Both the position numbers and the translations under genes were made by a program. DNA of 15,441 nucleotides from contig JBFMCP010000052.1 in the NCBI GenBank assembly GCA_040754455.1, forward strand, positions 1-15,441, in the 5' to 3' direction. Shown one piece after another: positions 11,757 to 15,441 of this stretch (its first letter is position 1; each line of letters starts with the position of its first letter). Source of the DNA: Nitrospirota bacterium (GTDB taxonomy: Bacteria > Nitrospirota > Thermodesulfovibrionia > Thermodesulfovibrionales > Dissulfurispiraceae). The notes under the pieces were generated by a model, which saw only the letters and a program-made list of their open reading frames with translations, had not been told where the DNA came from and searched no databases.

Positions 11757-11830
11757 AATAGTTTATGGTGCATCGTTCGTAGTTCACCGTGTATGGGTGG
11801 CGATGAACAATGAACGGTGGGCGGTGAACA
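11757..11830. repeat. Inverted pair of 7-nt arrays (GTTCATN / ATGAACN family, same as 2871-2928)
   Basis: Left AATAGTT TATGGTG CATCGTT CGTAGTT CACCGTG; right ATGAACA ATGAACG GTGGGCG GTGAACA (11803-11830). Shares GAACAATGAACGGTG with the rplB-rpsS spacer. Confidence 0.85.
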
Positions 11831-11858
11831 ATACTACGGATATAAAAGGAGTGCGAGA

Positions 11859-12224
11859 ATGGCGAGAATAGCTGGTGTCGACCTGCCCAAGAACGAGCGT
11901 GTAGAGATAGGGCTGACCCGCATCTTTGGTATCGGGAGGGCTCTGTCGAATCAGATATTGAAAGAGGTGAACGTCAACCCTGATACGAGGGTGAAAAACC
12001 TCACCGATGAGGACGTCGTAAAGATCAGGGGACGCATCGAGAAGGACTTCAAGGTCGAGGGTGATCTCAGGAGAGAGATCGCCATGAATGTGAAGCGGCT
12101 TACCGATATAGGCTCCTACAGGGGGTTGCGCCACGCGGCGCACCTGCCGGTACACGGGCAGCGCACTAAGACCAATGCAAGGACTCGCAAGGGACCGAGA
12201 AAGCTTGTCATCAAGAAAAAGTAG
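11859..12224 (+). CDS. rpsM: 30S ribosomal protein S13 (uS13)
   Basis: [10 protein letters not shown]...LTRIFGIG...EGDLRRE...YRGLRH...[20 protein letters not shown] at 11859 after AAGGAG. Confidence 0.98.
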
Positions 12225-12245
12225 CTAAGGAGGAGTACTACGGAC

Positions 12246-12632
12246 ATGGCGCAGAAAAAGAGAGTCGGTAAAAAGGTAAAGAAGCACATACAGGTAGGCA
12301 CTGCTCATATACAGACTACTTTTAACAATACGATCGTGACGATTACCGATGCGGTCGGCAATGTCATTGCATGGTCGAGCGCCGGGAGCCTTGGCTTCAA
12401 GGGGTCCCGGAAAGGCACTCCCTTTGCAGCGCAGATGGCTTCGGAAACCGCAGCAAAGAAGGCGATGGAGACAGGCCTGAAGCAGGTCGATGTTTTCGTA
12501 AAAGGTCCCGGTGCAGGCAGGGAGACGGCGATCCGTGCCCTGCAGGCGGCGGGGCTGGAAATAACGCTTATCAAAGATGTTACTCCGGTGCCGCACAACG
12601 GGTGCAGGCCGCCGAAAAGGAGGAGAGTATAA
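12246..12632 (+). CDS. rpsK: 30S ribosomal protein S11 (uS11)
   Basis: [16 protein letters not shown]...[14 protein letters not shown]...GPGAGRE...[18 protein letters not shown]. Confidence 0.99.
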
Positions 12633-13259
12633 ATGGCACGTTATACGGGACCGCTGTGTCGACTGTGCAGGAGAGAGGGTGAAAAGCTCTTCCTGAAAGG
12701 CACCCGCTGCTATACCGAGAAGTGCGCAGTGGAGCGGAGAAAGTATCCTCCGGGACAGCATGGTCAGAACAGGGGAAAACTCTCTGACTACGGAATGCAG
12801 TTGAGAGAGAAGCAGAAGGCAAGAAGAATCTACTGGATAATGGAGAATCAGTTCCGTAATTACTTTGAGAAGGCCTCCAGTATGAAGGGGATCACCGGCG
12901 AAGTGCTCCTCCAGATGCTGGAGCGGCGCATTGATAACGCCGTCTACCGCATGGGATTCGCCCTCAACAGGAGAGAGGCGCGCCAGCTCGTCAGACACGG
13001 ACACTTTCTCGTCAACGGGAAGAAGGTCGATATCCCCTCCTATCTGCTGAAACCGGGTGATATGGTCCAGGTTAGTGAGGCGAGCAAGGAGCTGCAGGCG
13101 ATCGCCGATAGCCTTTCGATGGCCGAGCACCGCGGATTCCCGGGTTGGGTGGAGGTCGAGCCCCAGAACCTGAGAGGAAAGTTTGTCAGAGTCCCTTCGA
13201 GGGACGAGATGCAGCTGCCGGTAGCGGAACAGCTCATCGTCGAACTTTACTCAAAGTAG
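12633..13259 (+). CDS. rpsD: 30S ribosomal protein S4 (uS4), zinc-binding type
   Basis: [24 protein letters not shown]...KC...PPGQHG...SDYG.QLREKQK...IVELYSK. Confidence 0.99.
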
Positions 13260-13346
13260 TCAGTGGGCAACTTCCGGGCCGTGCTCCGAGGAGCGGTGCC
13301 GGGATTCTCTTGAGAATAAATACAGAAAGGCATAGGAGACCGTACT

Positions 13347-14348
13347 ATGGATCTTGTTAAAAAGGGCTTTCAGCTGCCGAAGAAGATCAATTTTGATGAA
13401 GAGACCCTTACCGAGAGTTATGGGAAACTGGTCGTCGAGCCCCTTGAGCGCGGCTTCGGCACCACGATCGGCAACTCGCTGCGGAGGGTTTTACTTTCTT
13501 CCATAGAGGGCGCTGCAATTACGGGGTTCAGGATACCCGGAGTGCTGCATGAATTTTCGGCGATAAAATCGGTGAAAGAGGATGTCGTTGATATCGTCCT
13601 GAATATAAAGAAGCTGCGCTTCAGGGTACATGGCGACGAAAGCCGGACCATCACCGTTAAGGCGAAGGGCCCCAAAGTGGTCACCGGCGCCGATATCGAG
13701 ACCGATGCCAATGTGGAAGTGCTGAACAAGGACTGCTATATCGCATCCGTCGACAACAACATGACCCTCGAGATGGAGATGTATGTGAAGAAAGGCAGGG
13801 GCTATGTGCCTGCCGAATTCAATAAAGAGGAAAATCTGCCTGTCGATGTCATTGCCGTGGACTCTGTCTTCAGCCCGATCAAGAAGGTGAACTTCTGGGT
13901 GGAGAAGGCCAGGGTCGGCAGGTCGACCGATTACGACCGCCTCATTATGGAAGTATGGACCGACGGCGGCATCAGCCCTGAAAAAGCGGTCAGCGATGCG
14001 GCGTCGATCCTCATGGACCACCTCGATCTTTTCATATTCGTCGAGGAGCCCGAGGAAACGGAAGAATCCTCACACGCCGCCTCTCCGGTAACCGCCACTC
14101 CGGCCATGAACGAGCATCTGCTCAAGAGCATTGATGAACTGGAGCTCTCGGTGCGGGCATATAATTGCCTCAAGAACGCCAACATCAAGACCCTTGGCGA
14201 CCTTGTGCAGAGGACGGAGCACGAGATGCTCAAAACAAAGAACTTCGGCCGCAAATCCCTGAACGAGATAAAGGACATCCTGACCTCGATGGGCCTGAGC
14301 TTCGGCATGAAAGTCGATATGAACGAAATAGAAGGCAGTATAAAGTAG
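13347..14348 (+). CDS. rpoA: DNA-directed RNA polymerase subunit alpha
   Basis: EPLERGFGTTIGNSLRRVLLSSIEG, VLHEFS, alpha-CTD ELELSVRAYNCLK...KTKNFGRKSLNEIK. Confidence 0.99.
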   Translation: MDLVKKGFQLPKKINFDEETLTESYGKLVVEPLERGFGTTIGNSLRRVLLSSIEGAAITGFRIPGVLHEFSAIKSVKEDVVDIVLNIKKLRFRVHGDESRTITVKAKGPKVVTGADIETDANVEVLNKDCYIASVDNNMTLEMEMYVKKGRGYVPAEFNKEENLPVDVIAVDSVFSPIKKVNFWVEKARVGRSTDYDRLIMEVWTDGGISPEKAVSDAASILMDHLDLFIFVEEPEETEESSHAASPVTATPAMNEHLLKSIDELELSVRAYNCLKNANIKTLGDLVQRTEHEMLKTKNFGRKSLNEIKDILTSMGLSFGMKVDMNEIEGSIK

Positions 14349-14375
14349 AAATCCTAGAGGAGGTAGAGGCGTACC

Positions 14376-14786
14376 ATGCGTCATAAAGTAGCAGGAAGAC
14401 ACTTCGGAAGAACGGCGAACCAGAGGAAAGCGTTGCTGCGCGGCCTCGTTGCATCCCTCTTCGAGCACCAGAGAATAGAGACGACCGTTGCCCGGGCGAA
14501 GGCCATCAAGGGGATCGCTGAAAAGCTCGTCACCTTCGGCAAGCAGGGCGATGTCCATTCAAAGAGAATGGTCATGTCCTACATCCCCAACAGGGCGGTG
14601 GTGGCGAAGCTCTTCTCCGAGATCGCACCGCGCTTTGCGGACAAAAACGGCGGCTATCTGAGGATTGTCCAGACACGGCAAAGGGTCAATGACCGCGCCC
14701 CCATGGCGATCATCGAGTTCGTCGATTACGAGCAGAGTGTAAAGGCCAAGGCTGCAGAGAAGACCGAGAAGAAGGAGAGCACGTAG
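14376..14786 (+). CDS. rplQ: 50S ribosomal protein L17 (bL17)
   Basis: MRHKVAGRHFGRTANQRKALLR...IETTVARAK...GGYLRI...D.APMAIIE. SD GAGGAGG. Confidence 0.98.
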   Translation: MRHKVAGRHFGRTANQRKALLRGLVASLFEHQRIETTVARAKAIKGIAEKLVTFGKQGDVHSKRMVMSYIPNRAVVAKLFSEIAPRFADKNGGYLRIVQTRQRVNDRAPMAIIEFVDYEQSVKAKAAEKTEKKEST

Positions 14787-14920
14787 TGAACGATCTCCTG
14801 CTCGGAGCGATTATCCTCGTCGTCTGGATCGTGCTGCAGGTCTTTGTCTTCCCCCGCATCGGCGTGCCCACCTGAGGCGTGCCGCCCAAGGGTCCGGGGG
14901 ACTCTAAGAAGTGTAAGTAA
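14786..14920 (+). CDS. Small single-pass membrane protein; 29 aa if TGA is a stop, or a 44-aa candidate selenoprotein if TGA(14873-14875)=Sec
   Basis: GTG overlaps the rplQ stop (TAGTG), SD AAGGAG at 14772-14777. Translation MNDLLLGAIILVVWIVLQVFVFPRIGVPT-(TGA)-GVPPKGPGDSKKCK-TAA. Hydrophobic helix at about residues 4-22. Hairpin 13 nt after the TGA. Confidence 0.6.
14889..14905 (+). promoter_or_regulatory. Candidate bacterial SECIS hairpin
   Basis: AGGGTCC-GGG-GGACTCT: 7-bp stem with one G-U pair and a G-rich apical loop about 20 nt downstream of the in-frame TGA. Confidence 0.45.
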
Positions 14921-14943
14921 GAGTAAATAACATAAAGCAAATG

Positions 14944-14976
14944 AAAGGGATTCGCGAAAAGCGAGTCCCTTTTTTA
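14944..14976 (+). terminator. Rho-independent terminator closing the ribosomal superoperon
   Basis: AAAGGGATTCGC-GAAAA-GCGAGTCCCTTT stem-loop followed by a T-run. An A-rich 5' side may allow bidirectional use. Confidence 0.88.
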
Positions 14977-15030: not shown

Positions 15031-15441
15031 GGGACTGTCTCGCCAACTGTGTAAATCAGTTTCCTCATAACAGCCTGTCCTCGAAGAGGACGACGAGCTG
15101 TGCATAGATTATAGCCCAATCCTTGATAGGTTTGCTCCATTTCCTTTCAAGCTCAAGCGCAGCCATGTAGAGGGACTTCAGCACCGCCTCGTCCGAGGGG
15201 AAGGCCCGGCGGGCATCTGTGACCTTCCTGAACTTGCTGTTAACGCTTTCGATGATGTTGGTGGTGTACATGACCTTCCGGATCTCCACCGGGTAGCGGA
15301 AGAAGGTCGTGAGAGGGTCCCAGTTCGCCCGCCAGGATTTTACGACGTGGGGATACTGCCGGAGCCAGCGCTGCTCGAACCTCTGCATCTGCGACTCGGC
15401 CTCTCCGAGGGGCGCAGCCCCATAGACGGCCTTGAGGTCTG
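15031..15441 (-). mobile_element. IS256-family insertion sequence, distal end (truncated by window)
   Basis: Transposase C-terminus plus a probable terminal inverted repeat GGGACTGTCTCGCCAACTGTGTAAA at about 15031-15055, just past the transposase stop. The other end is outside the window, so the IR and target duplication cannot be confirmed. Confidence 0.85.
15065..15441 (-). CDS. IS256-family (Mutator-like) transposase, C-terminal part
   Basis: Open frame to the window edge: DLKAVYGAAP...QRFEQRW...YPHVVKSW..NWD.LTTFFRYP.EIRKVMYTTNIIESVNSKFRK...RRAFPSDEAVLKSLY. YTTN.IES.N and FP motifs are typical of IS256. Confidence 0.93.
   Translation of the reverse strand, partial: DLKAVYGAAPLGEAESQMQRFEQRWLRQYPHVVKSWRANWDPLTTFFRYPVEIRKVMYTTNIIESVNSKFRKVTDARRAFPSDEAVLKSLYMAALELERKWSKPIKDWAIIYAQLVVLFEDRLL

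Follow-up and report, generated by a model that had tools for sequence, protein, structure and literature searches.

The 15,441-nucleotide stretch of Nitrospirota DNA analysed here (contig JBFMCP010000052.1; the whole stretch is referred to as the window) carries near its end, directly behind the ribosomal protein gene rplQ, a small open reading frame (ORF) with an in-frame TGA at codon 30. Judging from sequence comparison, this ORF is very probably a real and conserved selenoprotein gene, the last cistron of the alpha operon, in which the TGA encodes selenocysteine (Sec). As far as a comparison of genomes can show such things, it shows a translated gene, a UGA recoded at a position which relatives fill with cysteine, a conserved hairpin behind that UGA, and a genome equipped with Sec machinery. 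The SelB dependence of the hairpin, the insertion of Sec, the membrane topology of the product and its chemistry are what we infer from these observations. An earlier note, made from the letters of the window alone, had proposed a 44-residue membrane selenopeptide at this place, and the comparative data offer that proposal strong support.

Read with selenocysteine at the TGA, the ORF occupies positions 14786..14920 of the forward strand, on which all features described here lie unless stated otherwise, and comprises 44 codons and a TAA stop (14918..14920): 29 residues, the TGA (14873..14875), and 14 further sense codons. Its GTG start (14786-14788) shares one base with the rplQ stop codon (TAGTG), and a Shine-Dalgarno-like AAGGAG, as read from the sequence, lies 8 nt upstream of the GTG (14772..14777). 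Codons 4-22 (14795..14851) are predicted from their hydrophobicity to form a transmembrane helix, which includes the family-conserved Trp14 and Gln18. The hairpin AGGGTCC-GGG-GGACTCT (14889..14905), a putative bacterial Sec insertion sequence (bSECIS), has a 7-bp stem and a GGG loop (14896-14898), begins 13 nt past the TGA and places its loop 20 nt from it. Cys43, encoded by TGT (14912..14914) in a K-K-C-K C-terminus, is a candidate resolving thiol on the basis of its conservation in orthologues. The rplQ overlap, the ribosome-binding motif, the TGA, the Cys codon, the TAA and the hairpin were all where the earlier note had put them, and the terminator which it had described behind the ORF was recovered as an intrinsic-terminator-like hairpin with a T run at the operon end (14943..14973). 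We also observed that the TGA is flanked, at 14861-14887, by a near-perfect 9-base direct repeat (GGCGTGCCC ... TGA GGCGTGCCG), which yields G-V-P on both sides; this repeat is absent in a close relative (L015).

A six-frame search of 61 related genomes with the read-through peptide as query found 52 which contain the ORF, in each case with a single internal TGA. Thirty loci were extracted and aligned, and codon statistics were computed on the 22 sequences which aligned without gaps. The TGA stands at the identical aligned codon in all 30 loci, immediately after the motif P-(K/R)-x-G-(V/I)-P-T. Residues Q18, P23 and G26 are invariant, W14, L17 and T29 are at least 90% conserved, and protein identity among homologues falls to roughly 34% with W14, Q18, P23, G26 and T29 retained. 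The ORF directly adjoins rplQ in 29 of the 30 inspected loci, and 22 of them feature a stop/start overlap of -1 or -4, which supports the translational coupling to rplQ that had been suggested from the window sequence. To these loci we added an evenly drawn sample of 401 genomes of the phylum, searched with a profile of window-family sequences. It returned 93 matches, of which 90 were scored with a TGA; in the remaining three (G080, G220, and G298) the TGA lies just beyond the aligned part, such that 93/93 matches carry it. Neither TAA nor TAG was encountered at codon 30 in any of these loci or matches, in keeping with the recoding previously proposed. Matches were found in 89 of the 118 sampled genomes of the window's order and in 4 of the 283 from elsewhere in the phylum, each of which belongs to the same class; one genome scored as a miss (G050) holds a diverged copy of the same layout.

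The stretch behind the TGA bears the marks of coding sequence. Mean column entropies at the first, second and third codon positions are 0.55, 0.57 and 1.40 after the TGA, as compared to 0.91, 0.40 and 1.59 before it, while the tail codons 41-44, which lie beyond the hairpin, yield 0.33, 0.29 and 1.30. Ser40 is written with all four TCN codons (TCC 6, TCT 5, TCG 4, TCA 4) and Cys43 with both of its own (TGT 12, TGC 8). The terminal stop varies among the same 22 sequences (TAA 13, TAG 5, TGA 4); the internal TGA is constant. Across the 30 loci the open frame after the TGA extends for 13-21 codons, and for exactly 14 in 22 of them, with changes in length amounting to whole codons (+1, +2, +7); a C-terminal Cys, two or three residues from the end, is kept in 27. 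Codon-position entropy and whole-codon indels thus bear out the expectation that both the frame and its residues continue to be conserved past the TGA. A separate gene beginning after the TGA was considered and rejected: there is no conserved start, codon 32 being GTN in only 13 of the 22 sequences.

Further evidence comes from homologues which hold cysteine at the very codon in question. A scan of species-representative genomes, using a pattern which required a true Cys codon at its end, revealed Cys at the TGA position in 12 loci from other phyla (L044-L055), and two database proteins (P0037 and P0051) show the same. The 12 loci derive from metagenome-assembled genomes labelled Deltaproteobacteria, Polyangia, Desulfobacteraceae, Planctomycetes, Leptospira and Bacteroidota, and in their products the helix and the junction are the same and lead into C-x4-C (alignment A3). 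Profile-profile comparison (hhalign) of the TGA forms with the Cys forms gave a probability of 99.4% and an E-value of 1.4e-21 and placed U opposite the first Cys. Proteins of the type W...P..G(V/I)PT-C, to which the earlier note had referred, do therefore exist. The Cys family is large: 974 representative clusters were matched at E ≤ 0.001 and 92 at E ≤ 1e-10. Among the top 149 representatives, 121 feature C-x4-C, and in 16 the first of these Cys positions is taken by Trp (W-x4-C in 15 of them, W-x4-T in one; P0123, P0178, and P0208 belong to the 16). Since P0178 is near-identical to a locus whose codon is TGA (L096), these Trp forms are probably TGA genes which gene callers have read with a code in which TGA means Trp.

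The C-x4-C membrane proteins share with the window peptide an N-terminal helix with W14 and Q/N18, a junction of the form P-(K/R)-(L/F)-G-I-P-T-C, and a similar size (39-171 residues). They differ from it in having Cys at the TGA site and a second Cys five residues on, which the window's subfamily lacks, as well as in being surrounded by redox and sulfur genes instead of rplQ. One Cys form (L045) lies beside thioredoxin genes and a DsbD_TM-thioredoxin fusion, a second (L053) adjoins a thioredoxin, and a third (L055) adjoins a thioredoxin and DUF302; further neighbours include MBL-rhodanese, TauE, a pyridine-nucleotide-disulfide oxidoreductase, a HesB/IscA-like gene, and DUF6132. In P0222 (171 aa), the C-x4-C membrane peptide is fused to a full thioredoxin domain (TIGR01068, E 1.1e-35), a fusion which offers a Rosetta-stone hint at the partner of the family.

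A second Sec-type subfamily, distinguished by U-x4-C, was found in a sister order, namely that of the genome behind locus L052. The Cys-family profile matched 136 of 201 genomes of this order, 135 of them with one TGA, and U-x4-C occurs at the junction in all 19 loci inspected. Here the hairpin is a different one: its 6-bp stem starts 10 nt behind the UGA, and its loop has 5 nt and in most cases reads AGGUR or AGUUR. In the ungapped alignment 97.4% of cells are paired, as against at most 62% in slid controls, and double-change cells number 8 versus 1.8 in shuffles (0/500). The sister genes do not lie beside rplQ, and no conserved neighbour of these Sec forms was found among the 19 loci, their neighbours being variable. 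By way of observation, six of the 19 (L095, L098, L103, L104, L108, and L110) have a TRAP transporter DctM gene a few hundred bases upstream on the same strand, and six of the 19 are flanked on the other side by a gene for an AMP-binding enzyme, encoded on the opposite strand. Three rplQ-linked loci from other orders of the class (L086, L087, and L088) have a Cys 8 residues past the TGA, where the window's order has it at 13 and the sister order at 5; the spacing of the presumed resolving Cys therefore appears to be free.

With regard to the hairpin itself, the available text of PMC13188914 characterizes a bSECIS by a loop of 3-9 nt with G in its first two positions, a stem of 4-16 bp, a distance of 16-37 nt from the UGA, and a minimum free energy of ≤ -7.5 kcal/mol. 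The window hairpin falls within all four bounds (loop GGG, 7 bp, 20 nt, -7.7 kcal/mol), so that the bacterial SECIS geometry ascribed to it by the earlier note holds. It also resembles the hairpins found 12-16 nt beyond the in-frame UGAs of this genome's own fdhA, mvhD and selD genes: those of fdhA (UGA+14 nt, 9-bp stem, loop GGC), a second fdh-like gene (UGA+12, 8 bp, GUC), mvhD (UGA+16, 7 bp, GGA) and selD2 (UGA+12, 5 bp, GUC) have, as in the window, a loop of 3 nt starting with G, while that of selD1 (UUC) does not. Pairs were counted on a named structure across the 30 orthologues: 73.8% of cells pair, relative to 63.9% when shuffled (0/500) and no more than 57% in slid controls, and 18 cells show double changes, relative to 6.1 when shuffled (0/500). 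The position of the hairpin is thus conserved with compensatory changes, as the proposed function would have it. Codons 35-37, which make up the 5' arm and the loop, display unusually low third-position variability, and we take this pattern as a sign of RNA constraint laid over coding.

The genome from which the window derives (92 contigs, 3.27 Mb) holds the machinery which such a gene would need. Both selB (376 bits) and selA (626 bits) were detected, together with two selD genes, each with one in-frame TGA, and a tRNA-Sec which scores with the Rfam tRNA-Sec model and which ARAGORN reports as tRNA-SeC with anticodon tca; the component genes to which the earlier note had pointed are consequently all present. 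The selB gene occurs in 60 of the 61 relatives, including all 52 carriers of the ORF. With 60 of 61 genomes possessing selB, its co-occurrence with the gene is not discriminating within the order. An altered genetic code was considered as an explanation for the TGA and rejected, TGA being used as an ordinary stop across the genome: 4 of the 23 genes in the window terminate in it, as do 313 of the 1035 long frames counted over the whole genome. As a separate observation, a second tRNA lies above the Rfam tRNA-Sec cut-off (58 bits; G000:C21:54199-54289 on the reverse strand, locus L013:1497-1591). ARAGORN reads it as 95 nt with a Cys anticodon (gca), and it is situated about 5 kb from the selD gene at C21:48405-49331. 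Sec-like tRNAs with unusual structures have reportedly been encountered by others, and this may be one of them.

Several other explanations of these data deserve consideration. That the frame is a chance opening in the spacer between rplQ and the terminator, with no protein made from it, strikes us as scarcely credible. The ORF is certainly very short, begins with GTG and belongs to no Pfam or NCBIfam family, yet conservation at the protein level extends across the order and beyond with key residues kept at about 34% identity, codon positions vary as they do in coding sequence, the coupled overlap with rplQ recurs in 22 of 30 loci, and 974 clusters of Cys-type relatives exist. As far as comparison of sequences allows, this explanation is refuted. 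A TGA acting as a true stop is more serious, although we still hold it to be improbable. The product would then be a 29-residue peptide only, and the conserved 45 nt behind it would be non-coding, an RNA element at the 3' end of the operon such as a stability or regulatory hairpin. Public gene calls, nearly all of which end at 29 residues, agree with such a stop, as does the RNA-level constraint at synonymous positions of the hairpin region, and sequence alone never proves Sec insertion. A non-coding element would not, however, account for three-base periodicity and synonymous codon use throughout codons 31-44, including tail codons outside the hairpin, nor for indels of whole codons. Moreover, a true stop would drift as the terminal stop does, yet TGA is retained in 30/30 loci and 93/93 matches, and homologues exist with Cys at exactly this codon.

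Coding past the TGA, for its part, demonstrates read-through and not the identity of the residue inserted. The UGA could be decoded without Sec-tRNA, by a near-cognate Trp or Cys tRNA or by a suppressor, in which case a 44-residue peptide free of selenium would result. To this we assign a low probability, marginally above that of the true stop. The hairpin is weaker than many SECIS elements, and the genome does carry the Sec-like tRNA with a Cys anticodon mentioned above, both of which would suit decoding of this kind. On the other hand, selB is present in all 52 TGA-form carriers tested, and the residue found in homologues is Cys, the classic counterpart of Sec. Hairpin geometry and the G-first loop match the genome's own SECIS elements, two lineages maintain different hairpins at the same place, and TGA is an ordinary stop elsewhere in the genome. 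Taken with the evidence against a true stop, these observations favour selenocysteine at codon 30.

A number of results nevertheless weigh against a Sec-encoding gene of the kind proposed, or against parts of it. The strict bSECIS test is also passed by 16 of 626 ordinary TGA stops and by 94 of 3000 random TGA triplets of the genome, and against shuffles the 40-nt region attains a z-score no better than -0.3. A single hairpin alone is accordingly not beyond chance; it is the comparative data which lift the finding far above it. RNAalifold returned no consensus structure for the 30 sequences, and folds of the single sequences give a mean z-score of only -1.1. In a strict test without bulges, no more than 3 of the 30 orthologues and 4 of the 19 sister loci attained -7.5 kcal/mol; loop and spacing are as expected of a bSECIS in 29/30 and 19/19, respectively. 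The hairpin is thermodynamically weak in many orthologues. Frame +1 after the TGA is mostly open as well (at least 13 codons in 27 of 30 loci), for which reason the openness of the frame was dropped as an argument for coding. The tail Cys is absent in three of 30 orthologues (L023, L030, and L043), and a Sec30-Cys43 pair is therefore not universal. No such gene follows rplQ in one genus (g12) and one family (f10) of the same order: in the former (L081/L082) rplQ runs directly into a terminator, in the latter (L084) into a tRNA gene, and the gene was found in 0 of 14 sampled genomes of f10. On this sequence evidence the gene has been lost at least twice within the window's order, and given its absence from these two groups it is therefore dispensable. 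Finally, redox neighbours occur only at the distant Cys forms and at none of the Sec forms, whose neighbours are rplQ here and variable in the sister order.

If codon 30 is indeed read as selenocysteine, expression might proceed as follows. Ribosomes which end rplQ would probably restart at the overlapping GTG. Upon reaching UGA-30, they would probably meet SelB, recruited with Sec-tRNA(Sec) by the small hairpin 13 nt downstream; selenocysteine would be inserted and the 14 further codons translated. The outcome would be a peptide of 44 residues which is predicted to cross the membrane once. Its hydrophobic residues 4-22 are preceded by an acidic N-terminus of three residues and followed by a tail which carries five Lys/Arg against one Asp; the positive-inside rule would place the N-terminus outside and the Lys-rich tail, including Cys43 and, at the membrane interface, Sec30, on the cytoplasmic side. 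An invariant polar residue within the helix, Gln18, suggests docking of the peptide to itself or to the helix of a partner. The complex prediction made for two copies of a Cys-form relative (alignment A4) scored 0.01.

What the selenol might do is a matter on which we can be tentative at best. Because the Cys relatives carry C-x4-C and adjoin or are fused to thioredoxins, a membrane-tethered selenol may be imagined which cycles with Cys43 or with the thiol of a partner as a selenenylsulfide and is reduced by thioredoxin, a scheme we regard as the likeliest chemistry, although as somewhat less than an even prospect. A broader picture is more speculative still and, in our estimation, unlikely: a housekeeping micro-selenoprotein tied to the ribosome/RNA-polymerase operon, for which selenium supply would set whether the 29-residue stub or the 44-residue selenol form is produced, and in which the ratio of the two could, at the membrane and served by thioredoxin, report on or relay the selenium and thiol redox state. 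Together with its U-x4-C and C-x4-C relatives, such a peptide would constitute a new and very widespread class of juxtamembrane redox micro-proteins.

Neither the 44- nor the 29-residue version of the Sec form matches any Pfam or NCBIfam family at E ≤ 10, and Pfam PF11127 (DUF2892, a YgaP-like transmembrane domain) was likewise not matched by either at this threshold; nor did the peptide match DUF6132 in Pfam. The Cys and W forms gave only chance-level Pfam and NCBIfam matches far below cut-offs, with the exception of the thioredoxin domain of P0222. Nearly all of the 77 public proteins matching the window's family are 29-residue 'hypothetical proteins', which bears out the suspicion that gene callers truncate the product. 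A cluster look-up of family proteins retrieved no name other than 'hypothetical protein', and in the protein atlas only an unnamed 56-residue cluster was matched (0.89). Table 1 of a 2026 review (PMC13188914), in its available form, holds 119 prokaryotic selenoprotein families, with no small single-pass membrane family among these entries. The available text of the deep-Sep paper (PMC12013277) names nine other new families. Searches of full-text literature found no description of the family. What we describe appears to be an uncatalogued new family within a well-known mechanism, the product of which databases cut short.

The familiarity of the mechanism is evident from comparison with known bacterial selenoprotein genes which depend on SelB and a bSECIS: like these, the window gene has Cys homologues and resides in a genome with Sec machinery. 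The window peptide is nonetheless unlike the products of fdhA, mvhD and selD in that it has 44 residues, is predicted to be membrane-anchored, and is without a thioredoxin-like or enzyme domain, and its gene differs from theirs in being the last cistron of a ribosomal-protein operon and in matching no known selenoprotein-family model. In outline it is reminiscent of the eukaryotic single-pass membrane selenoproteins SELENOK and SELENOS, which have one N-terminal helix and a disordered, cytosol-facing tail carrying Sec. This resemblance is one of outline only, a sequence relationship having been neither sought nor seen, and the differences are considerable. SELENOK and SELENOS rely on a SECIS in the 3' untranslated region, are two to four times longer, and carry Sec near the C-terminus, whereas in the window peptide Sec would lie at the membrane interface.

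The alpha operon, rpsM-rpsK-rpsD-rpoA-rplQ, lies at the end of the window (11817-14786; Pfam S13, S11, S4, RpoA, and L17) and is preceded by genes for SecY and methionine aminopeptidase, likewise identified with Pfam. Its last ribosomal-protein gene, rplQ (ribosomal protein L17; 14376..14786, Pfam Ribosomal_L17, E 1e-35), ends in a TAG stop at 14784-14786. Just beyond the operon terminator sits the C-terminal part of a Mutator-family (IS256-like) transposase, encoded on the reverse strand at 15065-15439 and running off the contig end (Pfam Transposase_mut, E 3.5e-23).

Inventories of selenoproteins draw on gene calling and on domain models, neither of which picks up a gene of 44 codons that stops at a TGA. 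Since the family is frequent (present in 89 of the 118 genomes sampled from the window's order, and in 135 of 201 for the sister form) and yet has been missed, the selenoproteomes of these anaerobes are undercounted by at least one gene; in public databases its product appears either as a stub of 29 residues or with a Trp in place of Sec. Should the assignment be true, the peptide would be among the smallest selenoproteins, of a kind for which the available form of Table 1 in PMC13188914 has no bacterial single-pass membrane entry, and it is encoded in an operon which ranks among the cell's most conserved. Its Cys relatives, in 974 clusters, make up an uncharacterized family tied to thioredoxin and sulfur-stress genes. 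A selenol located on the membrane's inner face would provide a testable lead to a redox function.

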